A stretch of 57,257 nucleotides of DNA from an uncultured Bdellovibrionales bacterium (GTDB taxonomy: Bacteria; Bdellovibrionota; Bdellovibrionia; Bdellovibrionales; JAGQZY01): positions 1 through 57,257 of the forward strand of contig CBDUOS010000002.1 of NCBI GenBank assembly GCA_965368905.1. The letters run 5' to 3'. Shown here in pieces: positions 28,129 through 50,575 of the stretch. The translations under genes and the position numbers were made by a program. The stretch's first letter is position 1, and every line of letters begins with the position of its first letter. The notes under the pieces are model-generated. The model worked only from the letters and a program-made list of their open reading frames with translations. It was not told the origin of the DNA and made no database searches.

Positions 28129-29085
28129 CTACTGTCTTTTAAATTCATCAACAAGACCTGCCAGCTCCTCTTGGCTCTGGCTCAGGTCCAGGGGGATCTG
28201 TTGGTGTGAGGATCTTTCGGACAAGCTGGCTCGGCATTTTTTTGCGCAGATGGGTGGTCCCATTTGCTTCCATTCTTTCTTCAGCTGTAAGAGTCGAGAA
28301 TCTTTCATCACAGAGCCAAATTCTTGTGAGATGGGGTATTGCATCTCCACATTGGAGTTGGTCCAGCAGCAAGGAGAATAGGCCCCATTGGCTGCAAGAT
28401 AATGCATCGACTGTGTTTGGCACTTTGGTTCAATTCGATCTCCTGGGTTACTTGCCTGAGCGATCCAAGTTGGATTGGGGGCCATGGGGTCCATGCCCAT
28501 GTTGTTGGTCCAATGGCCGTTAAAAAGGTGGCTTTTTGTGAGGAGAAACGTGTGTACACCCATTCTCTTGGCATGTTTTATAGTATCGAGAATTTGATCT
28601 TGGTTGTGTGAAAAAACAATAAACTTCCATATTGTATGGACCTGATCGACACATAACTCGATAGCCTTTTCAATCCACTCCCAGTGAGCTCCGACTCGGT
28701 ACTGAGAGTTGGTTTTGGAAAGACCATCAATGCTGAGCAAAACACTATCCTGTGGAGTCAATTGATCTAAAACTCGAGTCCAACGTTTTTCATTTTGATT
28801 TCCGCTGGTATGAATAAGGTGCTTGGCACTGGGTCGAATATCACGAGCTAAAGCGATCAACTCATCCAAATGAGGATGCATTAAAGGGTCTCCGTAGTTG
28901 CCGCCATATTCAATGGTTTCAAGATTGTCCCACAGACTCGAATTCAACAGCCGAGCTAATATTTCAGAATCTAGATGCTCAAGATCATATGAATCAGGAG
29001 ACTCAGTCCTAGGGCAACGAGGGCATTTTAGATTACAATAAGTGGATGGTTCCACATATAAATAGGTGAAGCGATCTGCAAACAT
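28129..29085 (-). CDS. Radical SAM enzyme with Cys-rich SPASM/twitch-like C-terminus
   Basis: CNLKCPRC (CxxxCxxC) near the N-terminus, plus GGNYGDPLMH. The C-terminal CQTQSMHYLAANGAYSPCC fits C-x12-G-x4-C, followed by ICAKKC. ATG at 29085 is preferred; the track start at 29187 would overlap the upstream PilZ ORF. Confidence 0.75.
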   Translation of the reverse strand: MFADRFTYLYVEPSTYCNLKCPRCPRTESPDSYDLEHLDSEILARLLNSSLWDNLETIEYGGNYGDPLMHPHLDELIALARDIRPSAKHLIHTSGNQNEKRWTRVLDQLTPQDSVLLSIDGLSKTNSQYRVGAHWEWIEKAIELCVDQVHTIWKFIVFSHNQDQILDTIKHAKRMGVHTFLLTKSHLFNGHWTNNMGMDPMAPNPTWIAQASNPGDRIEPKCQTQSMHYLAANGAYSPCCWTNSNVEMQYPISQEFGSVMKDSRLLQLKKEWKQMGPPICAKKCRASLSERSSHQQIPLDLSQSQEELAGLVDEFKRQ

Positions 29086-29104
29086 CCCGGTAAGGATACA
29101 TGAT

Positions 29105-29491
29105 CTATTCTGAAAGTTCACCCGGGCTTGGAAGCAGGTCGCATAAACATTCTCGCCAATACTCCGGTGCGTCAGATGTGTAGTCAATTCCTATTTCAAA
29201 CATAGACTCACCACAGTAACGTGTACGCGTGACGATTCCAGTAATATCCAAATCCATCGCCGGAATGAATATTGAGACTTGTAAGCCTTCGACATCTTCA
29301 ATACTTAGGTTTTCTCGTAGAAGGGGATCGCAAATTTCCTCTCTGCGAACCTCTAAACGAAATCCACTGGTTGATGCTTCTGTTAGCATTCCTCCGTCGG
29401 CAATTGGGGTCAGGTCACTAATGGAAATTAAACCTTGTATAGCAAGGGGATCTAGCTGTTTTCGGTCAAAATATCGTTTCTCTGATCGCAT
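29105..29491 (-). CDS. PilZ-domain protein (putative c-di-GMP receptor)
   Basis: EKRYFDRK supplies an RxxxR-like motif and EASTSGFRL resembles D/NxSxxG (E in first position). A beta-barrel-like remainder (ITGIVTRTRYCGESMFEIGIDY) follows. 19 nt upstream of the radical SAM gene. Confidence 0.55.
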   Translation of the reverse strand: MRSEKRYFDRKQLDPLAIQGLISISDLTPIADGGMLTEASTSGFRLEVRREEICDPLLRENLSIEDVEGLQVSIFIPAMDLDITGIVTRTRYCGESMFEIGIDYTSDAPEYWRECLCDLLPSPGELSE

Positions 29492-29711
29492 TTCTTACTC
29501 CTTGCTCAAAGCCGCTATTCAAGAAGCCCTCAGGACTTAAATCCTTGTCGGTGGATCTGGATAAAAGTTTAGGGCTTAAGGAAAATCCCTATTTTTTACT
29601 GTCTCAGAACGGGATTCATTATCAATCAATTGAACAGTTGATCGTAATTTGATCAGTAGACCCAATCTTTTTTCTTTAATAAACTGATAAGAGAACGTTA
29701 AGGGCTAGGTA

Positions 29712-30791
29712 ATGAGAAGAGAATTTATTATACAAGGAACACTCACGACAGCAGCTTTGCTCGGTTTCCGTTTTTCGTGGGCTAGTCGATTTCAAAACTA
29801 TTTTGTTTTTGGGTTTCAAGAAAATGGATCTGCCTATTTTGCGCGTTACGATCTAAAATCGGGAAAGTTTAAAAAGTTGAAAGTTAACCCTGCTCGAAAG
29901 TTGCATGAAATCTTTATTCACAAGAATCAGAAGAATATACTTTTTTGTGCCGATAAAAACGGAAAGAGTCTTCTTGTAGTAGATCTTGAAAAGATGAAAT
30001 TGGTTACCCGGCATACACTGGCTGAGGGAATGCGCTTTTATGGACATGGTGTTTTTGACTTGGAAGGGCGTCATCTTTGGCTAACAGCTTATGGTAATGG
30101 TTATAAAGGGTTTCTGATCAAATTTGACACTTTTTCTCGAAAATTTGTTAGAGAGATTCCGCTGCTTGGATACTATCCTCATCAGATTCATAGATTGTCT
30201 GACGACTCATTAGTTGTTGGGCAAATCAATGATATGTCAAAATTTCGCTCTCAGTTGTGTCGGGTTGACCCGTTTAAGAATAAAATAACACTAAAGCATG
30301 TTTTTTCAGAACACAAGATCGGTACTGTGGATCACTTCACTGTTGTTGAAGGGGATCTGATTGTAGCTCCTCTCACAAAAGAAGTACAAACCACTACTGG
30401 TAAAGAGTATAAGCCGGCACCAATTTACCAATGGAAGGTTGGCGAACAAAAAGGTGACTTTGTAAAACTCCCGCCAACGAAGAAATCAGAAAGTTTAACT
30501 GACACGGTACTTCCATTCAGAGACCGGTATGTTTTAGTAACGAATAGTCATAGAAAAGATTTGTTCTTATATGATTACAAAAAACGTTATTTTGCAGACA
30601 TTCTCAGTGTAGAACACTCACCTTTGGGCATCAGTTTAAGTGGCGATAATATTTTTGTGAATACTGACAACTTAGATCTGAAAAGAATTGTGTGCGAGGA
30701 TGGGAAACTAATGGTCAGCGATACGAAAATGTTAGCCAAGAAGAACGAGAAGATGAATTATATTTTCGAAGCTCATGCCTTCTTGATGTAG
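29712..30791 (+). CDS. Tat-exported beta-propeller-like protein, DUF1513-like
   Basis: Twin-arginine N-terminus MRREFIIQG...SWA. MRFYGHGVFDLEGRHLWLTAYGN resembles the DUF1513 core motif as I recall it. 359 aa. Confidence 0.45.
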   Translation: MRREFIIQGTLTTAALLGFRFSWASRFQNYFVFGFQENGSAYFARYDLKSGKFKKLKVNPARKLHEIFIHKNQKNILFCADKNGKSLLVVDLEKMKLVTRHTLAEGMRFYGHGVFDLEGRHLWLTAYGNGYKGFLIKFDTFSRKFVREIPLLGYYPHQIHRLSDDSLVVGQINDMSKFRSQLCRVDPFKNKITLKHVFSEHKIGTVDHFTVVEGDLIVAPLTKEVQTTTGKEYKPAPIYQWKVGEQKGDFVKLPPTKKSESLTDTVLPFRDRYVLVTNSHRKDLFLYDYKKRYFADILSVEHSPLGISLSGDNIFVNTDNLDLKRIVCEDGKLMVSDTKMLAKKNEKMNYIFEAHAFLM

Positions 30792-30795
30792 TATC

Positions 30796-31197
30796 TTAAA
30801 TAAATTTAGTAGTGTTCATTCTATAGCCAAGGTTTTTCATGGCTTTTGAATCGAAAATGTCTAGATTCGCTAATTCGTTTTCCCATCGAAGATAATTTTC
30901 CTTTGAAGAGAAAGTGAGTACTTTCATATGGTATGAGGTTTTTTTGATAGTTTTTTTAAATAGAACCAATTGCTTTAATCGCTGATTCTTTTCTACTGAT
31001 AAAACATCTTGGGAGCGAAAAAACTTTTTCTGGTCTAGGTTGAAGTCTTCAATGTTTTTTCCAGAAGGATAATGTGTGGTAAATGCTACGGTATAAAAGC
31101 CACTTTTTCGACCCAAGGAACCAAGAAGGCTAAGGCCTCCAATAGAAAGAACAGCGTTTAGCCCATATCGAACAATAGTTCTTCGAGATAATTCCAT
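30796..31197 (-). CDS. Hypothetical small exported protein (Tat-like signal)
   Basis: MELSRRTIVRYGLNAVLSIGGLSLLG has an SRRxI/V twin-arginine-like motif. No family recognised. Confidence 0.4.
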   Translation of the reverse strand: MELSRRTIVRYGLNAVLSIGGLSLLGSLGRKSGFYTVAFTTHYPSGKNIEDFNLDQKKFFRSQDVLSVEKNQRLKQLVLFKKTIKKTSYHMKVLTFSSKENYLRWENELANLDIFDSKAMKNLGYRMNTTKFI

Positions 31198-31293: not shown

Positions 31294-31839
31294 TTAAGAC
31301 AATTGGACAGGAGCTATCATAAGAGATTCAATGTTGAGGCCCCTTGGAGCTGAAAGTATAAAGTCTAGGCAGTGATTCAGTTGTTCCTGTGATATTTTTG
31401 GAGGAGGAAGTGGGGAGCAGCTTTCAGTGTCCATCATTCCAAGAGCAAGAAGGCTGACTCTGCATTGGGATTGTTCTGCCTGAATTGTTTGGGTTAACGC
31501 ATGCAATGCCGCCTTTTCTGCCGTGTACTGAGAATCGACAAGCTGCCAAATTTCAGGTCGAAAATGACCTGCGCCAATATTGAGGATTAACTTTTCAGAA
31601 TTTTTCCATTTCTTAAAAACTTTTTGTAAGAGCTCAACTTGAGCAAAGCCAGAATGAGCATTGTTAACAAAAATATTGGCACTTTCGCAGGCCAGGACCA
31701 GTTCATCTTGAACATGGGGATCGTTAATATCTTTTTCTTCAGATTGAGAGAAACCTTGGATCTCAAAGTCTTTTTCTTTCAGATAGGAGGAAATCCATTT
31801 GCCTACTCCACGTTTGTGTCCCGTTACCAATGCCTTCAC
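31294..31839 (-). CDS. Short-chain dehydrogenase/reductase-like protein (compact, 181 aa)
   Basis: TGHKRGVGK (TGxxxGxG), NNAH, and YTAEKAAL (YxxxK). Confidence 0.55.
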   Translation of the reverse strand: MKALVTGHKRGVGKWISSYLKEKDFEIQGFSQSEEKDINDPHVQDELVLACESANIFVNNAHSGFAQVELLQKVFKKWKNSEKLILNIGAGHFRPEIWQLVDSQYTAEKAALHALTQTIQAEQSQCRVSLLALGMMDTESCSPLPPPKISQEQLNHCLDFILSAPRGLNIESLMIAPVQLS

Positions 31840-31907
31840 AATCCTCCTCCAGCGTTCTGACTCGAAAGTTCTTTATTTGAAAATAACACTCTTTTATACT
31901 GTTTTCT

Positions 31908-32330
31908 GTGAGTCTTCGTCAAAACTACCGATTTTCAGAAAAAACTAAGTTGGGTGATTCAGTCATTCATGGAAAGGGGCGTTTTGCGACCTTGCCGATA
32001 GAACGCGGTGAAGTCGTAATTGAGGCCGGAGGACGAGTCATAAGCTTGGAAGAGTTTAACAAAACAAAGGAAGATTCAGTCAGTTATCTTCTGATGCCCG
32101 GCGCCAAAGTTTTGGTTACCAAGTGCCAGGAGAGGTTTAATGTATCTTCAGTTAATCACTCTTGTGATCCAAATATGGTTTTTGAGTTTCCATTTTGGAC
32201 TGCAAATAGAAATATTCAACCAGGAGAAGAGTTGACGACTGATTATTCGGAATTGGGCTACGAATCTAGTGACGATCTGCTACCCCAACAGTGTAATTGT
32301 CAGTCAGATCAATGCCGAAAGAAAGTTTGA
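31908..32330 (+). CDS. SET-domain (putative lysine) methyltransferase with post-SET Cys motif
   Basis: GKGRFAT, NHSCDPN, ELTTDYS and C-terminal CNCQSDQC (CxCx4C). The GTG start is uncertain. Confidence 0.75.
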   Translation: MSLRQNYRFSEKTKLGDSVIHGKGRFATLPIERGEVVIEAGGRVISLEEFNKTKEDSVSYLLMPGAKVLVTKCQERFNVSSVNHSCDPNMVFEFPFWTANRNIQPGEELTTDYSELGYESSDDLLPQQCNCQSDQCRKKV

Positions 32331-32338
32331 GGCGTAAA

Positions 32339-33094
32339 ATGGATATCCCAATTCTAGAGAGTGTAGAAGATTTTAAACTTTTGACTGCAAAAGAAAAAAA
32401 AGAGCACTTTGCATTTATCATTAAGAACGTCATCCCAGTAGAAAATTGTAAAGAAATCATTGAAGAAATTTTTAACTGGTCAAGCACAATTCCTCCACAA
32501 AATCCTGAAGAGCCGTATCCCACAGGAGTCTATAATCTTCATTTGCAAGTAAAACACAACGAACCTGCACCCGAGGAGCATATCAATTCTGAGTTGGGGA
32601 CGGATTTTCATGAACGCTATACTGATGTTGATGTCTACAATTATCGAATAGGTTGGATTGAAGATCCTAAATTTGTCAGATCTGCACCAAGGTTCTACGA
32701 CTTCGGAAAGAAAATTCTGAACGACTATCGTTTAATGACTGGGTTTGATTTTCAGCACGGTCCTGGCGGAAACAAGAACTTATACTTTGAATTTGCTCAG
32801 TATCCTTTAGGGAGTGGACATATCGAAAGACACACTCACTTAAGGAATATTGGCAATGGGCAGATGTGGAACTATATGACGTTATTAACACAGGATGGTG
32901 TCGACCACAGTTCGGCGAGTTTAAAGTTTGAATATAACAAAAGAATTTTTGACACACGTGAAGTAATAAATCAAGGGGATGGCATTTTGTTTCGCATGGA
33001 TATTCCCCATTTTGTGGATAGTGTAAGATCAGTCGAACAAAAATCTGTTACGCCAACCTCTGGTCGTTGGACTGTGGGTCTATTTTACTATTAG
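32339..33094 (+). CDS. Cupin/double-stranded beta-helix oxygenase-like protein, family X1 (paralog of 43141-43812)
   Basis: ATG 8 nt after the SET stop, with a GAGG SD. NLYFEFAQYPLGSGHIERHTH, GDGILFRMDIPHFV and C-terminal GRWTVGLFYY. These motifs are shared with the ORF at 43141-43812. Confidence 0.45.
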   Translation: MDIPILESVEDFKLLTAKEKKEHFAFIIKNVIPVENCKEIIEEIFNWSSTIPPQNPEEPYPTGVYNLHLQVKHNEPAPEEHINSELGTDFHERYTDVDVYNYRIGWIEDPKFVRSAPRFYDFGKKILNDYRLMTGFDFQHGPGGNKNLYFEFAQYPLGSGHIERHTHLRNIGNGQMWNYMTLLTQDGVDHSSASLKFEYNKRIFDTREVINQGDGILFRMDIPHFVDSVRSVEQKSVTPTSGRWTVGLFYY

Positions 33095-33965
33095 TTTTTT
33101 TAGTAAGTATGGATAATGCAGTACGGATAAAGCGTGGGTAAACTTTAAAATAACTCCATACAATATTCTCATTTGGGTCAGAAAAAGGGTTGTTAAAAAC
33201 ACCAGTCTTCAGGTTATGAGCATTTGAAGGGTTGGTGTATGTACCAAAGAGATGGTCCCAAAATGCAAAATAGGTTCCAAAATTTGAGTGTTGGAGTTTA
33301 GATTTTGAATGATGGGTGCGGTGATACAGTGGGCTGACTAAGACATACTTACCAAACCAACCATAAGTTGTATTCCAGCGACTGTGTGCGAGACAGCTTA
33401 GGACATCTAAACTGAAAAAGAATATAACAATCATTTCTGGTGGAACTCGAAAAAGAAGGCGAATCGGTATTAAAACCATTATGAAGAGAAATGGGAAACT
33501 GAGGGCGTGAATTCGGATATCACTCAGTGGGTTCAGTGCTGTTGCAGAATGGTGATATTCATGTTGAACCCAAAGTGGCTGTAAATGGCTTAGGCGATGA
33601 TACCAATAAAGCAAAAAGTCATATATTATTAAATAGATCAGTAGTAACAATGCCGACTGACCTTCGAAATACTGATCTAATCGTAGACTCGGTAGGTGTT
33701 GAGAAGAATAAAGAACGCCACCTAACATAACAACATTCCCCAAAAGTTTTCGACCATTGATGAGTTCAATTAGTAGAGTTAAAATGTCATGTTTCAATGA
33801 TACTTTAGACTCTACCATTTGTTCGAAAGGACCAAAAATAATTCGGTCTAACGAAAAGGCCAATAGGTACAAGCAAATATGAAAAAACCCATAGGTGATA
33901 ATAAATTCCCAAATATCAGACAGTGAAAAGTAGTGAAAAATATTTCTAGCAAAGGCTTCAAGCAT
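33048..33965 (-). CDS. Fatty acid hydroxylase / sterol desaturase-family membrane di-iron enzyme
   Basis: His boxes YWYHRLSH, HEYHH, HSRWN, LYHRTHH and the FWDHLFGTY tail. Several TM helices. Confidence 0.75.
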   Translation of the reverse strand: MLEAFARNIFHYFSLSDIWEFIITYGFFHICLYLLAFSLDRIIFGPFEQMVESKVSLKHDILTLLIELINGRKLLGNVVMLGGVLYSSQHLPSLRLDQYFEGQSALLLLIYLIIYDFLLYWYHRLSHLQPLWVQHEYHHSATALNPLSDIRIHALSFPFLFIMVLIPIRLLFRVPPEMIVIFFFSLDVLSCLAHSRWNTTYGWFGKYVLVSPLYHRTHHSKSKLQHSNFGTYFAFWDHLFGTYTNPSNAHNLKTGVFNNPFSDPNENIVWSYFKVYPRFIRTALSILTKKTNSKIDPQSNDQRLA

Positions 33966-33996
33966 AGATAAATTTTTTCATGGAGTTTTAAAAAAC

Positions 33997-35010
33997 TCAA
34001 TGATTCCCTTTTAGCAAAGAGAGAATATATTTTTTTGACTCAGGACTTTTGGCCCTAAACATTACGGAGTCGTAGAAGTAATGCAGAATATTTAGTGAGT
34101 CCATAAACCACCAAAAGAGCAGCCATCCAGCAGGGGCGGCAAACTCCCTGTAATACTTAGGGTCAACAAAACCAAAAGTATCGTTTCTGAGGTTTAGAAA
34201 GCACATAATTCCATACAAACCAACCGCTGCAAAGATAAATAAGCTGGTCAATGAGAAACGGTATATTTCAGATTTAGACTGAGATTTTCCGCTCAATTGT
34301 TTAAAAAATAAAACATACTCTAAGCCATGAAAAGCTGAGATCGCCATGGCCATAATAGGACTAAAAATTCCAATTGGAAAAATTATGAGTCGACTCAAGA
34401 ACAATGTCTCATTTCTCATACTTAGTGACCTTCGAATTGCTTGAAAGACAGAGAATACGCAAAGCAGAAATGCAGGGTAGAGAATAAAATTTTGATAGTT
34501 TTTGTCGACAAAGAAAAAGGCGGCCAGAGCGAAAATGTAAGAAATGGATATGCCTAGAAAGTATTTTTTTGATTCAAACTTTTGGTGGAGTGCACCGCTG
34601 AGCAAAAATATACCATAAGTTTGCATAACTGAGTGGTGTAATCCATAGGCTCGCAAAGCAAAACGTGAAACTTCCCAGGAAATAGATTTTTCAAAGAAGA
34701 AGATATAAATGATACCAGTAGCTAAAAAAGTAACAGGTATTGCGAGTTTAATCTTGAAATTTGTCTGGGCAGCAATGCGGTACCATGTGCGCATTTCTTT
34801 TATGAAAACGAGTCCAAGAAATGTAAATGCAATATGTACTAAATTGAAGAAAGCAATATCGGTGACAATTGACACTTGATCTTTAAATAGTTTTAGATTG
34901 TCGATGAGGCCACCATGAAAAACAGAAAAGCTGAGCAGGTAAAAGAGCAGGAGTGGAATTCCAACACTGTTGTGCAGACTTAAAATGTTAGTATTGTTTA
35001 CTTTCTTCAT
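33997..35010 (-). CDS. Polytopic membrane protein with conserved His motifs, family M (paralog of 44867-45871)
   Basis: About 9 hydrophobic segments. FFNLVH, IKEMRTW, LHHSVMQTYG, IFPIG, ISAFHGLEY and LHYFYDSVMFR are all mirrored in the paralog. Confidence 0.5.
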   Translation of the reverse strand: MKKVNNTNILSLHNSVGIPLLLFYLLSFSVFHGGLIDNLKLFKDQVSIVTDIAFFNLVHIAFTFLGLVFIKEMRTWYRIAAQTNFKIKLAIPVTFLATGIIYIFFFEKSISWEVSRFALRAYGLHHSVMQTYGIFLLSGALHQKFESKKYFLGISISYIFALAAFFFVDKNYQNFILYPAFLLCVFSVFQAIRRSLSMRNETLFLSRLIIFPIGIFSPIMAMAISAFHGLEYVLFFKQLSGKSQSKSEIYRFSLTSLFIFAAVGLYGIMCFLNLRNDTFGFVDPKYYREFAAPAGWLLFWWFMDSLNILHYFYDSVMFRAKSPESKKYILSLLKGNH

Positions 35011-36661: not shown

Positions 36662-37022
36662 CTTGCATACAAAGCTCGTTCTCAGTTTCTAAACAATAGG
36701 TCTTTGTAATGACTACTTTGTAGGGTGATTTATGTTTTTGAAGCTTAGAGAGCAATCTCTCTAACTTTTCTTTTCTTTTACTCGAAGGTTTCTCAAAAAC
36801 GTTATTCAGCTGAAAGGTAAGCTTCCGAAACTCCAGCCAACTTAGTGGAAGTATCTGCCCGTTTTTGTCGTAAATATGAGCTTTAACCACAAAGGTATCG
36901 TTTGGCTCTAGTGTGTATGCGTACATCGGGTAACTCGACCAAGGCCAACTGTGCCAGTGTAATATAGGACTCAATATCTGAATGATAAAAAGAATATAGA
37001 ATATCAGGGTAAATTTCCTCAT
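36627..37022 (-). CDS. Small N-terminally anchored protein, unknown function
   Basis: MRKFTLIFYILFIIQILSPIL anchor followed by a soluble domain (HWHSWPWSSYPMYAY...). ATG at 37022 lies 7 nt after the upstream stop; the track uses TTG at 37046. Confidence 0.45.
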   Translation of the reverse strand: MRKFTLIFYILFIIQILSPILHWHSWPWSSYPMYAYTLEPNDTFVVKAHIYDKNGQILPLSWLEFRKLTFQLNNVFEKPSSKRKEKLERLLSKLQKHKSPYKVVITKTYCLETENELCMQVDREQDEIFIF

Positions 37023-37029
37023 GATCTTT

Positions 37030-39430: not shown

Positions 39431-39495
39431 AGGGGTTTCCTTTTCGCTACATGAATAATAATATACATGATACTTCATTTGCATAGAGGGGCAAG

Positions 39496-43128: not shown

Positions 43129-43140
43129 TGCCTCAAGAAC

Positions 43141-43812: not shown

Positions 43813-43834
43813 TTGTGATCGGTGTTGATCTCCG

Positions 43835-44866
43835 TTGAATTCCTCTAATGAATCAAGTAAAATTAAGTTGTCTATTCATGCCCCCAAGCCGATTGTAGGA
43901 GCTTCTATTATAGTGACGTCAAGTAAAGTAGGCAATGTTAGCCTGATTTTGAAAGAGATAGAAAACCAATTTGGTCGACACGGCCTTGAGCCAATACATG
44001 GTGAGACGAGCAATGCTTTTTTTAAAATGGAGGGTTTTTGCCCGACGGGTAGTATTAAGGTTAAAACAGCCCTTTCGATGATTCAGAAGAAAATGGAACA
44101 AGGAGTGTTGATTCCGTCTAGTATGGTGGTTGATGCTTCGGCGGGAAATTTCGGGGTTGGATTGAGTTGGGTTTGTAATCGCCTCGGCTTCGGGTGCAAC
44201 ATAATATATCCATCAACAGCGTCTGAACTCAAGGCAGGTCTGATTAAAGAAAATTCCGCTGAAATCTCTTACTTCGAACGAAACCCTAAGAAGCAAGAAG
44301 AGTCGTTTGAAGAGGTTCTCAATTATGCAAGCCATCTCCCCGGGGCTGTTCGAGTCGATCAAATGAAAGACCCTGCCAACCCGCTCGCTCACTATAAATG
44401 GACGGGGCCTGAGATCTGGAAAGCATCGTCGGCTGAAGTGACTCATGTTTTTTGTGCCATTGGCACTGGTGGTACAATATCTGGAGTGGGACGTTTTCTT
44501 AAGATGAAAAATCCTGCAGTCCAGATTATTGGTGTCGACGTTGTCGGCAGCATCTACGGCGCGCAGCGAAACGATTGTGATAAAGAGTATGATTCGAAAA
44601 TTCTTTCTCACAAGATTGAAGGTGTCGGTGACGTAGTGGTTTCGAAGGTTTTTGATTCCGAGGTTGTGGACCAAATAGTTGTTACTGAAGACAATGAAGG
44701 CATACATCACTGGGGGGAGCTAAAAAACAAAGGATATGCGGTTGGGATGTCGACAGGACTTGTATACGCCGGTTTTAAAAAATTCGAAAAAGCATATGGT
44801 TTTCGTAAAAATGATTTTCCCGTTTTGTTGAGTGCTGATAGTAGTCGCTTGTATGTCTCTAAATAG
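43835..44866 (+). CDS. PLP-dependent enzyme of the cysteine synthase / CBS (tryptophan synthase beta-like) fold
   Basis: PTGSIKVKTA (PLP lysine context), GNFGVGLS, GTGGTISGVGRFLK. The non-ATG start lies only 22 nt from the divergent gene, so the N-terminus is uncertain. Confidence 0.75.
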   Translation: MNSSNESSKIKLSIHAPKPIVGASIIVTSSKVGNVSLILKEIENQFGRHGLEPIHGETSNAFFKMEGFCPTGSIKVKTALSMIQKKMEQGVLIPSSMVVDASAGNFGVGLSWVCNRLGFGCNIIYPSTASELKAGLIKENSAEISYFERNPKKQEESFEEVLNYASHLPGAVRVDQMKDPANPLAHYKWTGPEIWKASSAEVTHVFCAIGTGGTISGVGRFLKMKNPAVQIIGVDVVGSIYGAQRNDCDKEYDSKILSHKIEGVGDVVVSKVFDSEVVDQIVVTEDNEGIHHWGELKNKGYAVGMSTGLVYAGFKKFEKAYGFRKNDFPVLLSADSSRLYVSK

Positions 44867-45871
44867 ATGAAAGGTTTTTCTTTGAGTAAGAAGTTAGACT
44901 TGAAGCAAGAGTTAACAATTTGGTGTACACCTATTGTTTTCTTTTACTTAGTTCTTCTTTTACTAAACAGATCTGATTTTTTATCCAATGGGCAGTATTG
45001 GTATGACACCTCTCGGTTATTCTCGAGTATTTTATTTTTTAATGCGACTCATGTTGTTTTAGGTTTCTTAGGTCTACTTTTTATTCAGGAAATGAGAGAT
45101 TGGTGGACTGATTTCGAATGGAAAAAAAGCTTCTTTCTTCTCACGGTTCTCCTCCCGGCGATCTATTTAGTTTGGTTGTATACAAACTCTTACAGTGATA
45201 ATTTTTTGTGGAACTTTACAAGAGTCACTCTCATTTTTCTGAGCCTACATCATGCCGCCATGCAAACTTATGGTCTATTGGTTGTTGGAAAAAGTAAAAA
45301 AGAGAAAAGGATTTTGCGTCACTTGTTTCTGTTCCTGGTTGTGCTCTTTGGTGCTTCTAGGTATGCGAGGCTGGTCCCAAGTATTTCCCTTTTTTGGGTG
45401 GACTGGACAACATTCTTTGCTTCCTCTTTAACAATGTTATTGATTTATCGAGTCTGTTGGCACAGGAAAAGCGATCGAATATTCCTAATAAGAATTGTAC
45501 TCTTTCCTTTGGGGCAGATTTTTTCAGTTGCAGCCATTGGCATCTCTGCAATACATGGAGTTGAGTACCTGGTTTTGCTAAAACGACAGTTCGGTAACAC
45601 TAGAAGTAAAAGTGTTGTTCTTGGTTTAAACGGAAAAAGCTTTTCATATTTTTCAATTTTCCTAATGTATCTCGGCTTAGCCCTGGTTAATGAGAGATCC
45701 GGGCTGTTTTCAGTCAGAAATATGGATCGTTTTGAAGAGATTGGAGCCTTGTTAATGACCTCCTGGATCGTAATGGACCTGGTGTCGCTTCCGCACTATT
45801 TTTTAGATGGAGTGATGTATCGCTTCTCAAATAAGAACAGCCGATCCAAGATATTACCGCTGCTTCGTTGA
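44867..45871 (+). CDS. Polytopic membrane protein with conserved His motifs, family M
   Basis: FFNATH, IQEMRDW, LHHAAMQTYG, LFPLG, ISAIHGVEY, PHYFLDGVMYR. It starts immediately after the PLP enzyme's stop. Confidence 0.5.
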   Translation: MKGFSLSKKLDLKQELTIWCTPIVFFYLVLLLLNRSDFLSNGQYWYDTSRLFSSILFFNATHVVLGFLGLLFIQEMRDWWTDFEWKKSFFLLTVLLPAIYLVWLYTNSYSDNFLWNFTRVTLIFLSLHHAAMQTYGLLVVGKSKKEKRILRHLFLFLVVLFGASRYARLVPSISLFWVDWTTFFASSLTMLLIYRVCWHRKSDRIFLIRIVLFPLGQIFSVAAIGISAIHGVEYLVLLKRQFGNTRSKSVVLGLNGKSFSYFSIFLMYLGLALVNERSGLFSVRNMDRFEEIGALLMTSWIVMDLVSLPHYFLDGVMYRFSNKNSRSKILPLLR

Positions 45872-47197
45872 CGGCTCTCGGGCTATCCGAAAGCCCACAG
45901 ATTGTGATCGATATTCTTCTTCACCATAAAGTTTGTAAGACGACCGAGATCTTCTTTCGCAGTATAAGAAGCCGCCTCCCCTCCATATTTTTAGATTTTT
46001 CTTCTTTTCTTTTGACTGAGTGTATGAAGTGTCAATCCATTCCCAGACGTTGCCGTGCATATCATGTAGGCCCCAAGGGTTAGGCTTTTTCGTAGCAACT
46101 GGATGAGGCTGCTTGTTGCTGTTTAAGAAATGCCAGGAATAGGGATCTATTTGTTTTGGGTCGTTGCCAAAAGAGTAAAGCGACTTTGTTCCTGCTCTTG
46201 CTGCATACTCCCACTCATCGTCCTTCGGCAGACGGTAGTGCCAGCCCTTATTGGCAGATAGTCTATTTAGCTTTTCAAGAAATAAAGTGACCTCATGAAA
46301 AGAGACCTGTTCTACTGGGAGTTTGGGGCAAATCATATGTTGATTTACAGTCATGTGACTCTTGGGGCAATACTTGGGTAAATTAAAATAGGATGGATTG
46401 TATCCGACCAGATTGAACCAATCGAGTTGTGTGATTTCAGTCGCGGATAAGTCAAAACTATTCTGTATTGTAACCTTTTTCTGGTCCTCATCATGATCTC
46501 GGGAAGGTTCAGTTGCTGGAGTTCCTTTTATATAGGAGCCTTTTTCTATCTTGAGAAAGTGAATTTTAGGAAGCTGAGGAGCCAATTGTTTTAAAAATAT
46601 GGAAAAGAAGTGGGAGTTGCTATTAATTTGAAACTGATCATTTGGTGATTGTTCCTCTAAAAGGTCTGAAACAAACTTGGAGATATCACCATTAAATTCT
46701 GCTACAAGGGAGCTAAAATTTAGTGTCTGACTTTCATTAAACCTCGATATTTTTGTATTAATATTTCGTAAGTAGGCAAAAGTGATATCTGATGGTTTAA
46801 AATAGGAGGCAAGTTCATTGAGTTTTCTTATTTTCGATTTATTTTCAAAGACTTGATCATTGAAGTCTTCAGAATTTGTTCCTTGTCGCATTCCAGGTCT
46901 GAGATCTCTTTTTTGCCTTTTAGGATCCTCTCCATAGCGATCATGATTTGCAATGAGAAGGCTGTAGGTTATAATTTGTTTTAACTCGTCTTCAGGGCAG
47001 TCATAACTATGTTCTCCATATTGTATAGTCCAATGACCTGTGCTTTTCTTATGTACATTAATATCGGTAAGACTTAAGTATTCGTAATACCAGATTGAAA
47101 AAACAAAACCTAATAGAACGACAAAAGAAGCTGGGAAAACATAGCGCATCGGGGCTCTAAAGCTGGGCTCCACGTACCAGAAAATTGTTTTTCCCAA
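45854..47197 (-). CDS. Membrane-anchored protein with C-terminal FGE-sulfatase (SUMF1/EgtB/PvdO-type) domain
   Basis: N-terminal TM helix, an approximately 200-aa unknown region, then RLPKDDEWEYAARAG, NPWGLHDMHGNVWEW, WRGGGF, VGFRIARE. The start is either TTG at 47197 or ATG at 47149. Confidence 0.8.
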   Translation of the reverse strand: MGKTIFWYVEPSFRAPMRYVFPASFVVLLGFVFSIWYYEYLSLTDINVHKKSTGHWTIQYGEHSYDCPEDELKQIITYSLLIANHDRYGEDPKRQKRDLRPGMRQGTNSEDFNDQVFENKSKIRKLNELASYFKPSDITFAYLRNINTKISRFNESQTLNFSSLVAEFNGDISKFVSDLLEEQSPNDQFQINSNSHFFSIFLKQLAPQLPKIHFLKIEKGSYIKGTPATEPSRDHDEDQKKVTIQNSFDLSATEITQLDWFNLVGYNPSYFNLPKYCPKSHMTVNQHMICPKLPVEQVSFHEVTLFLEKLNRLSANKGWHYRLPKDDEWEYAARAGTKSLYSFGNDPKQIDPYSWHFLNSNKQPHPVATKKPNPWGLHDMHGNVWEWIDTSYTQSKEKKKNLKIWRGGGFLYCERRSRSSYKLYGEEEYRSQSVGFRIAREPSTKQR

Positions 47198-48239
47198 GTG
47201 CAGATTTAATATCTTTTTGAACCTTCTTGTTTGTCATGCCAGAGCTCAAAAGTTTTGAAGGAAAATTCTTCGTGTACTGTGTTTTGAATTTTTCTAAAGC
47301 TTTTTTTGGAATCAGATTGTTTTTGGAATATTTAAGATAAAACAGAAAGCCATTCTCATAATCATTGGCCAAGTGATTCATTCTTTGCTCGTCTATTACA
47401 GTTTGTTTAAGGCTCGAGGACAAGAACTCTTTCATTAAGATGATGTGATTATTTATCTTTTCATTTTTCGAGCTCATCAAGTTTTTGAGCAGCTGTTTGA
47501 TTTCGGGTGCCTCTATATTGACACTTTTCCCAGTCAACTTTTTAACATAGAGGCTTTGTATTTTAAACCATGGTTCATTGACTCCCGAATAGCATTGTTC
47601 AGCTTCTTTGAGTTTATTTAAGAGAGTCAAGTTTGAACAATAAGAATAGCGGAGCCATTTAGGACTATTTTCTGAGATTTTATTTTTAGAGAAGAAGTTT
47701 GGGGCCACAGAAGAAAATCCAAAGCGCACATGAACATGAGCGAGCTGTTCCTGAAGTTTTTTATCGGTAAGTGCACGTGAAAAAATGTGTGCAATTTTCT
47801 TCTGGTTTTTCAAAATTAGATCAAAGTTGTCAGTAACCAAAACATTCAAGAAGAGTTTAACCATATGTTCCGATAAAGGGCCATCGAAGTTATTGGTGCT
47901 GACATCAAAATTATTCATACATAGCGTGATGTTTTCGACACATTGACTAGAGGTCGTATCTAGAATGATCCGTTTGAAATCATCAGATTTGGATCGAGCT
48001 GCTAATTTAATCAGCCACTGACTTTTCTTAGGGGTGTAACCACCAGTTGAAAGATACTTTTTCGATGCCTGAGTGGCATCAATTCTCGAGTCGGGTCGAC
48101 TTGCGAACTTAAGGCGAGATTCTAGAGCCTTCAATTGTACAGGCAGGGGTTTATTCGACAGCGTGCTATAAAACCCATCTTGACCATTAGAAAATAGGCT
48201 GACAATAGCAATCAATATATAATTCATAAATATCCTCAA
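47157..48239 (-). CDS. Hypothetical exported protein (360 aa)
   Basis: N-terminal signal-like MNYILIAIVSLFS; Lys-rich and helical. No family recognised. Confidence 0.45.
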   Translation of the reverse strand: MRIFMNYILIAIVSLFSNGQDGFYSTLSNKPLPVQLKALESRLKFASRPDSRIDATQASKKYLSTGGYTPKKSQWLIKLAARSKSDDFKRIILDTTSSQCVENITLCMNNFDVSTNNFDGPLSEHMVKLFLNVLVTDNFDLILKNQKKIAHIFSRALTDKKLQEQLAHVHVRFGFSSVAPNFFSKNKISENSPKWLRYSYCSNLTLLNKLKEAEQCYSGVNEPWFKIQSLYVKKLTGKSVNIEAPEIKQLLKNLMSSKNEKINNHIILMKEFLSSSLKQTVIDEQRMNHLANDYENGFLFYLKYSKNNLIPKKALEKFKTQYTKNFPSKLLSSGMTNKKVQKDIKSALGKNNFLVRGAQL

Positions 48240-48269: not shown

Positions 48270-49133
48270 TCAAGTCTTCTCATCAAGTTCAAAATATTCG
48301 GAAAGAGAGATGCGGGCAGGGGAGTTTGGATTTCGCCTAAAATCCCTCAGACTTGGGTCGTCACTAAGTCCAAGTAGTACAACATCAGCAGGAGTCAGGT
48401 TCCATTTTTTGCAAATACGAATCTGTTGTTCTCGAAGTTTCTGATGACAGAAGTCAGATTCAAATTTTTTCGTTATTTCATCAGTTAGCACTAAATTTAG
48501 TAAGGAGTGATAGGAAACCTCATTTAAGGCCTCCTCTCCAGGAAGCAATTTTTTTGATATAGACCAGCCCATACGAAGATATTGGAGCCCAAAGGATTTA
48601 CTAAAAGAAAGGAATACTCTCTCAACATTGTCGTGTAGGGGGATGGACTGCCTTTTGGTGGTGCCCAGGTAGGTGCAATCTAGAACGATTCCGCAAGGTA
48701 AGAGGCTGAGATCTTTCCATGATGCTAAAAAATTACCATTGATCGCGCTTGGGTTTGAAATATAAAGGACAGCCCCTCTAGGGATCTCATCGAAATGGTT
48801 TACTTGTTTTATTTGTCCAGTAAGCATAAGTGGCCATCCGTAATCCCCTGCTAGCATATAGATCTCGCGTTTCTCGTAAAGCAACCAGCTTTCAATGGCG
48901 TGCGAGACCCCTTGGGTGGGGAGGACAAATGGGAAATCTTTGCAGTCTAGAAAGGGTTCAATCCAATTCCGGAGTCTGTTGGAAACCTCACTGGATAGAT
49001 TTCTGACAAACTTTCTCGATTGATGAGAGGGGTTGATTATGTCTGATAATTTGATCGACTCTGCCCAGCAAGCCACTTCAGGCAAAAGAGGGACTTGCAG
49101 TAGTTTTGTTGTTGGGGGGAATTGGTCAATCAT
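48270..49133 (-). CDS. Class I/II aminotransferase-fold protein, unusually short (287 aa)
   Basis: LYISNPSAINGNF (compare NPxNPTG) and FLSFSKSFGLQYLRMGW (compare SFSKxxGxxGxRxGW, the PLP lysine). Confidence 0.55.
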   Translation of the reverse strand: MIDQFPPTTKLLQVPLLPEVACWAESIKLSDIINPSHQSRKFVRNLSSEVSNRLRNWIEPFLDCKDFPFVLPTQGVSHAIESWLLYEKREIYMLAGDYGWPLMLTGQIKQVNHFDEIPRGAVLYISNPSAINGNFLASWKDLSLLPCGIVLDCTYLGTTKRQSIPLHDNVERVFLSFSKSFGLQYLRMGWSISKKLLPGEEALNEVSYHSLLNLVLTDEITKKFESDFCHQKLREQQIRICKKWNLTPADVVLLGLSDDPSLRDFRRNPNSPARISLSEYFELDEKT

Positions 49134-49141
49134 TTCATTCT

Positions 49142-49921
49142 TCAGGTGTATAGCGGTCGGGAGGTTAGTTCACTTTCGCCGCGCTTCCAAGCTTGCGAAA
49201 TTCTTACAAGCAAATCGCTTGGAGTTAAGCTGAACATCAGAATAATTCGGTCTTCTTTTCCACGATTTTCGGCGGCATGAGAGAATCCTGTGTTGAGAAA
49301 CCAGGGACAGCCGTCAGCGGCCATGTGGACCGATTCAATTTCACGACCCCGTTTCGTGTAATTGATCACCTGATCATTGGTGAAAACAGGTACAATGATT
49401 CGCATGGCAAAAGAGGGATCATAGTCTATATGAAAGTCTACCATCTTGCCGGGTTTTAACTTAACTAGACGAACACGCATTGGTGATTCTTCAAACTGAT
49501 TAACACAATTTTCAATGTAAGTTCCAGAGTAGGCATCGGTGGGTAAATCATAATTGCGCTCATCCATGCGTGGTTCATCCAGGCGGGGCTGCGTTTTCAA
49601 GCGATAGAGATCAGTTTTGGATTTAGGACTAGAAACTGGCATTGCCTTGAATGTTTGAAATCTTTTTTCAGCCATGTCAGGGTTAAAGCCTGTTAGGCTG
49701 ACCTGCTCATAGTGGTCTTGAACTGTTTCTGCCAATTTAGGATGATTCTTGCAAAGCGCGTCATTGGTTTCATAAATATCAGAAAAACTCTCGGCAAGAT
49801 TCCTCACATCTTTTTGCAGGCGACCAATTTCAAACTGAAAGCAACTCAGTTTAAAATAACTGGGTAAGTAATGCTTCCATGTTCTGTGCGAGTTCAATGA
49901 GATCGCTTTCGATGTGACCAT
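49142..49921 (-). CDS. Aspartyl/asparaginyl beta-hydroxylase-family-like 2OG oxygenase
   Basis: LKPGKMVDFHIDYDP (HxD), MRIIVPV, GFSHAAENRGKEDRIILMF. GGAGGTGAG SD. Confidence 0.6.
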   Translation of the reverse strand: MVTSKAISLNSHRTWKHYLPSYFKLSCFQFEIGRLQKDVRNLAESFSDIYETNDALCKNHPKLAETVQDHYEQVSLTGFNPDMAEKRFQTFKAMPVSSPKSKTDLYRLKTQPRLDEPRMDERNYDLPTDAYSGTYIENCVNQFEESPMRVRLVKLKPGKMVDFHIDYDPSFAMRIIVPVFTNDQVINYTKRGREIESVHMAADGCPWFLNTGFSHAAENRGKEDRIILMFSLTPSDLLVRISQAWKRGESELTSRPLYT

Positions 49922-49996
49922 CTCACCTCCAGAGTCGTAAGAATCATGACATAATACTTCTCATAATTGAGGAGAGTAAAGAGGGCGGCGCGTCGG

Positions 49997-50575
49997 CTAG
50001 AGGCTATAAAGTGCCAGTGTCGTTTGGGGTAAAAGCTGAATCGTACCAGAGCCGGGAATTTGCTTTTCTTGCATACAAGCACGGTATTGCCAGGTCTTTT
50101 CATCAACCGACTCCCACTGAGTGATCTTTATTTGAGAGATTGTAGGAACGGCCCATGGACTCGAGGCTATGGCTTTCCACAGAGCTTCTTTTGCTGAAAA
50201 CAAAAGATTGGGGATTGGGGAGAGAGCCCTCTCTTCATCGTCTGAGATGCGAACAATTATCTGATCGCTTAAACGACTCTTGTCCTCGAGGTCGACCCCT
50301 AGGGGTTGAGAATTTAATGCATATGCAAAAACAGAACCCAGCGAACAGTGAGAGATACTTAGGCTTATATCTGCAAGTTTCGGTGGGGAAATGGACAAGT
50401 CCTGCAAAGACTCATTGGCCAGCCCCTGCTTCTGTAAGAATTTATAGATCTCTTTGCGGATGAGTAGGCGAAAGTTATCACAATTAGAATTGATGCTATT
50501 CGATAAATACAGTTCGGCATTTGTGTTGCTTGTAAGGGGTAGAGGGTGTTTTTTAAACAATTGCGGTCCTAGCAA
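49997..50575 (-). CDS. 4'-phosphopantetheinyl transferase (compact Sfp/EntD-like)
   Basis: LSISHC, PLGVDLED and FSAKEALWKA match the PPTase core motifs. The TTG start overlaps the nadA stop by 7 nt, so the start is uncertain. Confidence 0.7.
   Translation of the reverse strand: MLGPQLFKKHPLPLTSNTNAELYLSNSINSNCDNFRLLIRKEIYKFLQKQGLANESLQDLSISPPKLADISLSISHCSLGSVFAYALNSQPLGVDLEDKSRLSDQIIVRISDDEERALSPIPNLLFSAKEALWKAIASSPWAVPTISQIKITQWESVDEKTWQYRACMQEKQIPGSGTIQLLPQTTLALYSL

Follow-up and report, generated by a model that had tools for sequence, protein, structure and literature searches.

Positions 1 to 57,257 of contig CBDUOS010000002.1, from the assembly GCA_965368905.1 of an uncultured Bdellovibrionales bacterium, were analysed; this whole stretch is called the window. 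Between 28129 and 50575 it carries a block of 27 genes in 22.4 kb, 96% of it coding, with 11 strand switches. Gene junctions mostly overlap or span less than 100 bp, and stop and start codons often overlap. An earlier reading of the letters and open reading frames (ORFs), here called the original prediction, had counted about 26 tightly packed ORFs with little intergenic DNA, an arrangement that is borne out, and had proposed an undescribed modification system dense in oxygenases and radical S-adenosylmethionine (SAM) enzymes. In this study, we show that the block contains a conserved cassette of about 14 genes, located at 28129, 31294-33094, 37030-43128 and 48270-49921 and split into three segments by insertions. 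The core of this cassette recurs in bacteria and in tailed phages.

Gene content of the cassette

Window ORFs were assigned to families with Pfam and NCBIfam profiles at curated cut-offs. The cassette enzymes are listed below; core denotes the eight families found at all adequately covered loci.

28129-29187 (likely start near 29085), minus strand: rSAM2, radical SAM enzyme with CxxxCxxC motif and Cys-rich C-terminus (Pfam Radical_SAM 47 bits)
31294-31839, minus strand: compact short-chain dehydrogenase/reductase (SDR) of 181 aa, core (Pfam adh_short 32.5 bits)
31908-32330, plus strand: SET methyltransferase with post-SET Cys motif, core (Pfam SET 50 bits, cut-off 22.4)
32297-33094 (likely start 32339), plus strand: OXY-A, cupin-type oxygenase-like protein, paralogue of 43141-43812
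37030-37737, minus strand: OXY-B copy 1, 2-oxoglutarate (2OG)-type oxygenase, core, paralogue of 40235-40960
37664-39484, minus strand: B12 radical SAM methylase (class B, TokK/CysS/KedN5 type), core (Radical_SAM and weak B12-binding matches)
39496-40245, plus strand: compact membrane acyl desaturase of the stearoyl-CoA desaturase (SCD) type, core (FA_desaturase 47 bits, cut-off 29.7)
40235-40960, plus strand: OXY-B copy 2 (2OG-FeII_Oxy_3 25.5 bits, cut-off 27)
40960-41841, plus strand: TauD/TfdA-family 2OG dioxygenase (TauD 102.6 bits)
41801-42445, minus strand: U41801, GNAT-fold acyl-CoA N-acyltransferase (no Pfam match; structure model)
42421-43128, minus strand: OXY-C, divergent 2OG/Fe(II) oxygenase, core (no Pfam match; motif and AlphaFold model)
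48270-49133, minus strand: truncated fold-type-I pyridoxal phosphate (PLP) aminotransferase-like protein of about 280 aa, core (SxSK lysine, DxxY and Arg kept)
49142-49921, minus strand: AspH-family (Asp_Arg_Hydrox) oxygenase, core (PF05118 26.9 bits, cut-off 22.6)

The SET, SDR, CysK/CBS-like PLP enzyme, desaturase, fatty-acid hydroxylase and formylglycine-generating enzyme (FGE) families named by the original prediction were confirmed with both profile collections. Its seven oxygenase-like ORFs all stand, with graded support.

Conservation of the cassette

A search for the B12 radical SAM protein among species-representative genomes led to two Bdellovibrionales metagenome-assembled genomes (MAGs). 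Locus L002, a 398-kb contig of an uncultured Pseudobdellovibrionaceae MAG, has the same ABC-transporter flank as the window, followed by 14 genes in window order: rSAM2, PilZ-like, SDR, SET, OXY-A, OXY-B, B12 radical SAM, desaturase, the second OXY-B (OXY-B'), TauD, GNAT, OXY-C, secreted helical protein and aminotransferase. The L002 enzymes are 49-67% identical to the window proteins. Window segments 33048-37046, 43141-47197 and 29712-30791 are missing from L002. Past its aminotransferase (L002:2-3719) lie three genes that by eye appear to encode a ferritin-like di-iron protein, a 609-aa NodU/CmcH-type carbamoyltransferase and an SGNH-like protein.

Contigs encoding OXY-C homologues, together with scans of viral and metagenome collections, gave a set of about 17 non-redundant loci, here numbered with the prefix L. 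Family profiles (hidden Markov models) were built from these loci and run on all their ORFs. Eight families are present at every locus with enough DNA around OXY-C: OXY-C, OXY-B, AspH-like, B12 radical SAM, SCD-type desaturase, short aminotransferase, SET and SDR. GNAT, TauD, OXY-A and another radical SAM enzyme usually accompany them. Gene order and orientation vary between lineages and identity to the window proteins is about 26-67%, while catalytic residues are kept in at least 90% of the members of every family. Carriers are the Pseudobdellovibrionaceae MAG, other metagenomic or uncultured bacterial contigs and aquatic tailed-phage contigs.

Conservation of the core set despite shuffled order argues for functional linkage rather than inertia, and the core genes very probably constitute one functional, horizontally exchanged unit. 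The idea of a coherent undescribed modification system lacking scaffold, carrier and precursor genes is thus supported by co-occurrence of the core families in about 17 independent loci. The original prediction had named homologues that are never co-localised in other genomes as grounds for its own rejection, and this check, now run, found them together. Its proposal that the entire 22.4-kb block is one unit holds for the conserved cassette of about 14 genes but not for 29712-31197, 33048-37046 and 43141-48239, which are absent from or not conserved in L002.

Two side observations concern other bacterial loci. L005 and L006 are near-identical apart from about 1.1 kb inserted between TauD and AspH (L005:7905-8745 versus L006:7646-7680), where only short, unconvincing ORFs are found. 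A more distant bacterial variant, L019 (JGI 3300056818, 68.6-kb contig), adjoins lptE and holA and contains rSAM2, three AspH-like genes, an OXY-C-like gene, a desaturase, a U41801-type GNAT and Acyl_transf_3; B12 radical SAM, SET and aminotransferase genes were not detected in it.

Oxygenases

A double-stranded beta-helix fold is indicated with differing strength for the oxygenase ORFs: TauD and AspH pass the Pfam cut-offs, OXY-C is assigned by its model, and 40235 and 43141 fall narrowly under the cut-off. The genes at 37030 and 32297 are assigned as oxygenases by paralogy only. For OXY-B, OXY-C and AspH the iron triad and the basic residue for the 2OG C5 carboxylate are kept in at least 90% of family members.

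The OXY-B motif HxE...H...R (H128, E130, H211, R223) is conserved across 14 sequences. Most bacterial and phage-group-1 loci have two OXY-B copies, and homologues of the second window copy (40235) share 35-67% identity across loci. OXY-A has homologues in L001, L002, L005 and phage group 1; the multi-locus family alignment reveals conserved H179, H181, H238 and R257, an HxH...H...R variant. The AspH-like family conserves H164-x-D166...H215...R225 and is represented by 1-3 copies in nearly every locus. TauD (40960-41841), whose closest solved relatives are TfdA-like (E 3.5e-7), has homologues in L002, L004, L005, L007 and the Pelagibacter phage Mosig. It is part of the bacterial and phage-group-1 cassettes and is missing from phage group 2.

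OXY-C displays the invariant motif H101-x-D103...H183...R193 in the family alignment. Its AlphaFold model (predicted local distance difference test, pLDDT, 90.6) gave 41 PDB matches at E<=1e-3 in Foldseek, those listed being 2OG oxygenases. The best PDB match is L-proline cis-4-hydroxylase (TM score 0.52); the model is nearer to uncultured Caudovirales proteins (TM score 0.70, E 1e-13) than to any solved structure. There are 14 close OXY-C homologues in a collection of 5.8 billion proteins, and an exhaustive profile search of 1.84 billion proteins yielded 239 representative clusters at E<=1e-3. PDB searches by sequence only were uninformative for 42421, 41801, 32297 and 48270.

Radical SAM enzymes

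The class B radical SAM enzyme with B12 domain, as first recognised from the letters, is borne out by an alignment with TokK over residues 41-394 that includes the cobalamin (Cbl) domain (E 6e-33); the match to CysS has E 1.6e-23. The Pfam B12-binding model alone remains sub-threshold (19.3 bits versus 32.1). Cysteines C209, C213 and C216 are invariant across loci, and homologues 35-57% identical exist in all loci with enough DNA. The score against the NCBIfam KedN5 subfamily (154 bits) does not reach the cut-off of 700, and judged by its sequence the protein is a relative of this subfamily, not a member. TokK, ThnK and CysS, the closest solved relatives, share its architecture of Cbl domain, radical SAM domain and C-terminal domain as well as CxxxCxxC. 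However, they are located in carbapenem or cystobactamid clusters with non-ribosomal peptide synthetase (NRPS) or beta-lactam scaffold enzymes, none of which is found in the window block. TokK and CysS iteratively methylate unactivated carbons, and the native substrate of CysS is a pantetheine-thioester-linked small molecule (PMC12846815).

The second enzyme, rSAM2, is an extended cassette member with homologues in L002 (54% identity), phage locus L011, Mosig and L019. It had been described as a radical SAM protein with a SPASM/twitch-like tail. The radical SAM assignment stands (47 bits), but the tail is hinted at solely by six C-terminal cysteines: the SPASM Pfam model has no match at E<=0.01, and the NCBIfam matches are partial SPASM/twitch maturase matches only, covering the N-terminal radical SAM core (residues 36-231).

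Desaturase, methyltransferase and amine-forming enzymes

The desaturase aligns over its full length (residues 8-236) with human and mouse SCD1 (E 2.6e-10) and has predicted transmembrane segments. Three His boxes (Hx4H, Hx2HH, Hx2HH) are conserved across 13 sequences. Its earlier assignment as an acyl desaturase stands at the family level. The SET protein contains the motifs VNHSCDPN, ELTTDY and CNCQSDQC, and its nearest solved relatives are KMT2/MLL-type SET and post-SET domains (KMT2A, E 2.6e-9). Its NH and Y motifs are conserved across loci, and the gene is present in the bacterial and both phage groups. The SDR carries TGxxxGxG and YxxxK. Of the 17 non-redundant loci anchored on OXY-C, 16 encode it; the one without it is a 3.6-kb fragment (L001).

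In the aminotransferase-like protein K179, D152, Y155, S176/S178 and R187 are invariant in eight bacterial and phage sequences. The family profile matches HisC and CobD weakly (E ~1e-3). The short aminotransferase fold recognised earlier holds, with the predicted Schiff-base lysine and cofactor-binding residues kept. Matches of the profile to TAL effectors were rejected as repeat artefacts.

The ORF at 41801-42445 had been left unnamed. Its AlphaFold model (pLDDT 88.5) yielded 414 PDB matches at E<=1e-3 in Foldseek, the best 50 of which are all GNAT acetyltransferases, and on this predicted structure it is a GNAT-fold acyltransferase. The gene lies directly downstream of OXY-C in every bacterial cassette and has 11 homologues only in the 5.8 billion proteins. 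Several cassette members are unusual: the minimal SET domain comprises 89-140 aa, the SCD-type desaturase 250 aa and the aminotransferase 280 aa, and for some oxygenase and GNAT families no more than tens of relatives are known.

Phage versions

Phage carriage falls into two groups. In group 1 (L004, L008, L009) the cassette starts directly after genes for the terminase large subunit, head closure and tail tube, identified by strong PHROG matches. Group 2 (L010, L011, L013, L014, L023, L025-L028) has a co-directional, overlapping operon of about 9 kb in the order desaturase, aminotransferase, AspH, c25, B12 radical SAM, cupin c11, sulfotransferase c12, OXY-B, cupin c13, OXY-C, SET and SDR. Between c25 and U41801 a weak hhalign signal was obtained (E 0.006, probability 7%). 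In L011 and L014 the neighbouring genes match phage families, among them phrog_1645, a virion structural protein (E 3.5e-117), and a ribonucleotide reductase. Phage versions add sulfotransferases of the 3'-phosphoadenosine-5'-phosphosulfate (PAPS) type (GTPRSGTSF loop, Stf0 match), a GNAT and extra cupins. On L010 (IMG/VR contig, 342 kb) and L024 (JGI contig, 369 kb) the compact operon lies on a phage-like contig as large as a jumbo-phage genome, among many small ORFs and a 950-aa protein with a PHROG match. B12 radical SAM and OXY-C from the window and from L010, used as queries, had no real match in 50,697 deposited phage genomes, none of which carries the full cassette.

A partial cassette is present in the isolated Pelagibacter phage Mosig EXVC030M (MT647606.1, L018; Kyanoviridae), directly beside tail-fibre genes. 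Its order is AspH, GNAT, methylase, TauD, hypothetical protein, peroxiredoxin, FMN reductase, aminotransferase, desaturase, AspH. The Mosig copies share 22-34% identity with the window proteins and 39-66% with those on the phage contigs; the window AspH-like protein (49142) shares 34% identity with Mosig_00072, and the L010 aminotransferase homologue shares 45% with the annotated 'putative aminotransferase' of Mosig. Two AspH genes, GNAT, TauD, short aminotransferase, desaturase and rSAM2 are common to Mosig and the cassette, whereas B12 radical SAM, OXY-B, OXY-C, SET and SDR are lacking and FMN reductase, peroxiredoxin, a class-I-type methylase and nitroreductase occur instead. Within Mosig 54701-66149 the partial cassette is interleaved with the annotated peroxiredoxin, NADPH-dependent FMN reductase and nitroreductase. 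On the other side lie three MoaA-like radical SAM genes, one of them related to rSAM2, and a DegT/ArnB-type aminotransferase. The host recognition cluster or hypervariable region of pelagimyophages contains lipopolysaccharide-related genes and variable radical SAM inserts, and AspH is core to the group (PMC7029224; see also PMC7892664 for the comparison with Mosig).

Proposed substrate and competing explanations

The families that are diagnostic for a substrate disagree. A universal desaturase aligning over its full length with SCD1 points to a fatty acyl chain, while a canonical KMT2-like SET enzyme points to a protein or at least a lysine-type amine. SDR, aminotransferase, GNAT and SET co-occur throughout the loci; together they suggest conversion of a hydroxyl to a ketone and an amine, followed by N-acylation or N-methylation. 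The bacterial signal-peptide helical and multi-transmembrane proteins, as well as Acyl_transf_3 in L019, point to the envelope. Support for an acyl or envelope target is weak to moderate.

We tentatively propose, as a possibility short of probable, that the cassette tailors in series a single envelope molecule with an acyl chain and an amine, for example an aminolipid, a lipid A-like lipid or a lipopeptide. The enzymes would act one after another on a pre-existing molecule instead of building their own scaffold. The desaturase and the B12 radical SAM methylase would alter the acyl chain, and 2OG oxygenases would hydroxylate the chain, the head group or both. The SDR would oxidise a hydroxyl to a ketone and the aminotransferase would turn the ketone into an amine; SET would methylate and GNAT acylate the amines. 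In phages, sulfotransferases would in addition sulfate hydroxyls, and the set might serve to re-tailor the surface of the infected cell or the virion. For bacteria of the predator lineage the target would be their own envelope or, conceivably, that of prey. Of the lipid reading that had been offered earlier, the arguments from the SCD-type desaturase, the AspH/LpxO family and the fatty-acid hydroxylase stay. LpxO, OlsC and OlsD, which hydroxylate lipids, belong to the AspH family, and OlsE to the fatty-acid-hydroxylase superfamily (PMC12971839).

Several points weigh against this proposal. For 33048-33965 the OlsE equivalog (NF052566) failed with 56 bits against a cut-off of 475, the LpxO, OlsB and OlsF models match none of the window ORFs, and 49142 matches neither LpxO nor OlsC. 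To our knowledge, SET enzymes are known solely as protein-lysine methyltransferases, and the window enzyme is canonical and KMT2-like, with a post-SET motif. The AspH-like proteins have no transmembrane anchor. In structure the GNAT best matches acetyltransferases for small molecules and proteins rather than N-acyl amino acid synthases, and the best solved matches of OXY-C are free-proline hydroxylases, ALKBH5 and PHD2, which are silent on lipids. The aminotransferase resembles HisC and not AONS/Spt. Neither an acyl-activating enzyme nor a carrier protein recurs with the cassette, and the order of the steps is pure inference.

Modification of proteins or peptides, which the original prediction had put beside the lipid reading, keeps the canonical SET enzyme in its favour. 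In this explanation, which we regard as rather doubtful, a structural or exported protein encoded elsewhere would be hydroxylated, methylated, acetylated, C-methylated and, in phages, sulfated: tail fibres or other virion proteins in phages, envelope or secreted proteins in bacteria, possibly the adjoining signal-peptide helical proteins. It accords with the universal presence of a KMT2-like SET, the match of OXY-A and OXY-B to prolyl-hydroxylase-type 2OG-FeII_Oxy_3, the founding of the AspH family on protein Asp/Asn hydroxylases and the common use of GNATs and sulfotransferases on proteins. Moreover, the cassette abuts tail-fibre or tail-tube genes in Mosig and phage group 1, a secreted helical protein lies beside it in every bacterial locus, and collagen-like or tail-collar substrates were predicted for related hydroxylase and sulfotransferase neighbourhoods in the part of Iyer et al. 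2010 (PMC2938197) drawn on here. However, no precursor or substrate gene is conserved within the cassettes, which removes its peptide version of the ribosomally synthesised and post-translationally modified (RiPP) kind. The universal SCD-type desaturase has no known protein substrate, the pair of SDR and aminotransferase is hard to fit, and the closest relatives of the B12 radical SAM enzyme are TokK and CysS, which methylate small molecules, rather than Mmp10 or RiPP methylases. The soluble enzymes also lack signal peptides, although the candidate bacterial substrates are exported. These same similarities to TokK and CysS, as antibiotic-pathway methylases, would suit a soluble small molecule (an amino-acid-derived antimetabolite, a signal, a siderophore-like compound or an osmolyte) made directly from a primary metabolite, for instance an amino acid or acyl-CoA, with no need of NRPS or polyketide synthase (PKS). 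Free L-proline and pipecolate hydroxylases are the best solved matches of OXY-C, the sole PDB match of AspH is a beta-hydroxylase that Foldseek lists as belonging to a nucleoside-antibiotic pathway, the relatives of TauD are small-molecule dioxygenases, ScoE and CarC among them, and EctA as well as the tabtoxin and phosphinothricin acetyltransferases are similar to the GNAT. An SbnA/CysK-like PLP enzyme is added in the window and, by eye, a carbamoyltransferase-like gene in L002. We nevertheless consider such a product unlikely: exporter, regulator and resistance logic are not conserved, SET and a membrane desaturase are atypical for soluble metabolites, the bacterial add-ons are largely membrane or periplasmic proteins, and 10-20 genes for a diffusible product would be odd in lytic T4-like phages.

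It is also conceivable, if very improbable, that there is no pathway and that independent auxiliary enzymes, for example O2/iron-dependent ones for host takeover or stress, have gathered in a hypervariable region and are linked only physically. The region in T4-like phages is indeed a hypervariable cluster of mixed content (PMC7029224), the window block changes strand 11 times and is interrupted by three insertions, and accessory content differs greatly between loci. Physical linkage alone would not, however, have kept together eight families that recur despite shuffling and at about 26-67% identity in cellular and viral genomes. In addition, OXY-C and U41801 were found here only in this context, and the genes of phage group 2 form an overlapping co-directional operon.

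Some narrower candidates were rejected. RiPP logic was dismissed after clustering all ORFs of 20-110 aa from 19 loci, which returned only the SET gene and out-of-frame shadows and no conserved precursor; neither a RiPP recognition element (RRE) nor a leader peptidase or dedicated transporter was matched by Pfam or NCBIfam in any window ORF. In agreement with the original prediction, no NRPS/PKS, acyl carrier protein (ACP), precursor or integrase was found in the window block with these profiles and the small-ORF clustering of the 19 loci. A sphingolipid or capnine-type route (Spt/AONS with SDR and GNAT) was rejected because the aminotransferase matches HisC/CobD and not AONS; the PALP enzyme scores 156 bits against CapA (cut-off 600), weaker than its CBS match, and lies outside the conserved core. 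A carnitine-like route from SET over a TMLH-like TauD to a PLP aldolase fails as TauD is TfdA-like with no BBOX or TMLH match and is missing from phage group 2. Ergothioneine or ovothiol synthesis via FGE was discarded since the FGE protein is membrane-anchored, nearer to PvdO/GldK and confined to this lineage.

Returning to the acyl-amine envelope molecule, a bolder version can be formulated, which we judge improbable. The cassette would make, or remodel in place, an acyl-amino lipid or lipopeptide of a class not known before, which carries many decorations and belongs to the envelope of Gram-negative cells. It would be an invader's toolkit shared by T4-like and jumbo phages and the predatory Bdellovibrio lineage, with the first SET enzyme to methylate a non-protein, lipid-linked lysine or ornithine amine. 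If so, the molecule would be hydroxylated, C-methylated, desaturated, aminated, N-methylated and sulfated, and phages and predators would both re-tailor the surface of a seized cell, or their own.

Relation to known systems

The ornithine-lipid and lipid A systems OlsC/OlsD/LpxO/OlsE/OlsG (PMC12971839) resemble the cassette in that AspH-family oxygenases and a di-iron enzyme of the fatty-acid-hydroxylase superfamily hydroxylate the chains or head group of envelope lipids. The ornithine-lipid system likewise has an N-methyltransferase for the head-group amine and performs its tailoring with no adjoining scaffold gene. However, the window enzymes remain below every Ols/LpxO equivalog threshold and share superfamily membership only. 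The methyltransferase of the cassette is a SET enzyme, whereas OlsG is PmtA-like; no OlsB, OlsA or OlsF is linked within the inspected 57 kb, and the GNAT has no OlsB-specific similarity. Known aminolipid and lipid A systems consist of 1-3 genes and are not known from phages, in contrast to a cassette of 10-20 genes.

Tandem multi-dioxygenase neighbourhoods have been described in cyanophages and bacteria and were predicted to modify peptides or amino-acid-derived metabolites serially (Iyer, Abhiman, de Souza & Aravind 2010, NAR; PMC2938197). As far as the portion of that article used here extends, they share with the cassette several distant 2OG/cupin families set beside genes for methyl-, acetyl- and sulfotransferases, PLP aminotransferases and radical SAM enzymes, an occurrence in T4-like aquatic phages and sporadic bacteria, and a predicted serial action on a single substrate. 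In the loci studied here, at least five oxygenase families per locus are likewise accompanied by GNAT, SET and sulfotransferase, in about 17 loci that include phages and Mosig. The arrays in the same portion centre on JmjC/MINA-type proteins, tryptophan halogenases, TonB receptors or NRPS, none of which is present in the cassette, and that portion does not describe the set of SCD-type desaturase, B12 radical SAM, SET, short HisC-like aminotransferase, SDR, OXY-B and OXY-C. The general kind of neighbourhood is thus already known computationally, but the eight-family cassette, its occurrence on chromosomes of Bdellovibrionales and on contigs of jumbo or T4-like phages and its expanded form with a membrane module in the window appear to be undescribed in the sources searched. 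No experimental characterisation of the cassette was found in the literature searched.

In tailed phages of abundant aquatic bacteria 9-15 kb are given over to these enzymes. The dioxygenase-rich regions of cyanophages and pelagimyophages have been a puzzle since at least 2010. The cassette shows that phages and a predatory lineage of bacteria have exchanged genes, and the product chemistry is likely new. An expanded chromosomal copy, a compact phage operon and a partial version in the culturable pair of Mosig and HTCC1062 make the system experimentally approachable.

Insertions and accessory genes of the window

The remaining genes of the block lie in three insertions and at the margins of the cassette.

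29105-29491, minus strand: small 128-aa protein, PilZ-like by motif only (RxxxR...SxxG, by eye)
29712-31197, both strands: insertion 1, two twin-arginine translocation (Tat)-signal proteins; GC 0.369
29712-30791, plus strand: Tat-signal DUF1513-like protein (DUF1513 44 bits, N-terminal part only)
30796-31197, minus strand: small Tat-signal protein with a 24%-identical, relocated counterpart in L002
33048-37046, minus strand: insertion 2, five-gene membrane module absent from L002; GC 0.367
33048-33965, minus strand: FA_hydroxylase-family di-iron enzyme (FA_hydroxylase 94 bits)
33997-35010, minus strand: His-rich protein with seven transmembrane segments (7-TM), no Pfam match
35011-35865, minus strand: helical lipoprotein, no Pfam match
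35816-36661, minus strand: multi-transmembrane protein with 5-6 predicted segments, no Pfam match
36627-37046, minus strand: small protein with a single transmembrane segment and a WPxSSYPMY motif, no Pfam match
43141-48239, both strands: insertion 3, five genes, of which 43141-47197 is absent from L002
43141-43812, minus strand: OXY-A paralogue (2OG-FeII_Oxy_3 just below the curated cut-off)
43835-44866, plus strand: CysK/CBS-like PLP enzyme (PALP 167 bits)
44867-45871, plus strand: second His-rich 7-TM paralogue, no Pfam match
45854-47197, minus strand: membrane-anchored FGE-domain protein (FGE-sulfatase 124 bits, N-terminal transmembrane segment)
47157-48239, minus strand: secreted helical protein with a 23%-identical L002 homologue
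49997-50575, minus strand: probable phosphopantetheinyl transferase (PPTase) of the Sfp/EntD type (ACPS 20.7 bits, cut-off 25)

By windowed comparison, the GC content of the block (0.396) is modestly lower than that of its flanks (0.425 and 0.462) and is lowest in the insertion segments (0.37-0.39). Low GC and absence from L002 mark these segments as additions that this lineage made to a conserved core. L002 lacks a homologue of the DUF1513 gene, and neither the product of this gene nor the PPTase is ever part of the set at other loci. For the PPTase named in the original prediction an ACPS match does exist, but below threshold; with no homologue in any related locus, the gene is a neighbour and not a demonstrated cassette member. 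The supposed PilZ protein shows the motif by eye, but has no Pfam match even at E<=5. Its gene overlaps or is tightly coupled with the rSAM2 gene, with which it is presumably co-transcribed, is missing from cassettes outside Pseudobdellovibrionaceae, and with 87% identity to its L002 homologue is the most conserved gene of the region (neighbours 49-67%).

Homologues of 35011, 35816 and 36627 adjoin the B12 radical SAM gene in L005/L006. A WP(W/F)SSYPMY protein and a multi-transmembrane partner are thus found beside this gene in two distant bacterial loci, the window and L005 (L005:15355-15756 and L005:14469-15365). A PALP gene also flanks the cassette in L006. The original prediction had noted membrane and exported ORFs of no nameable family, and Pfam is likewise silent on the window membrane and secreted accessory proteins at E<=5.

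Among these, 33997-35010 and 44867-45871 are paralogous with each other and with L005:2688-3680. The proteins have about 335 aa and 5-7 predicted transmembrane segments, carry the motifs HH..MQ, HG.EY and HYxxD..(F/W)(R/K), and match nothing in Pfam at E<=5; each of the two large window-specific insertions holds one copy. Judged from these motifs, they could be a new family of membrane metalloenzymes. Each bacterial cassette is also accompanied by one or two all-helical proteins that bear a signal peptide or lipobox and are poorly conserved (window 35011-35865 and 47157-48239; L002:5152-6270; L005:1327-2604 and 13618-14535; L007:7986-9149; L019:354-1508), and phage versions by none. They may be a periplasmic partner or substrate.

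Flanking regions

To the left, the block is flanked by an ABC transporter permease and ATPase that are 77-81% identical to their L002 counterparts. Among the block ORFs no integrase, transposase or phage structural gene was matched by Pfam. A prophage or genomic-island origin of the window copy was rejected, as integrase and structural genes are lacking and L002 has the same ABC-transporter flank; the modestly lower GC is the only weak island sign. Rfam detected no riboswitch or RNA regulator in the block, and its matches are a tRNA gene (21684-21756, plus strand) and a bacterial small signal recognition particle RNA (54903-55000, minus strand), both outside. The tRNA gene is 6.4 kb from the block, with conserved genes between. 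The right flank (50569-52742, minus strand) is housekeeping and encodes NadA (368 bits) and an Arf/Ras-like small GTPase; RecR in this flank was judged from the sequence and the ENA gene table for L015.

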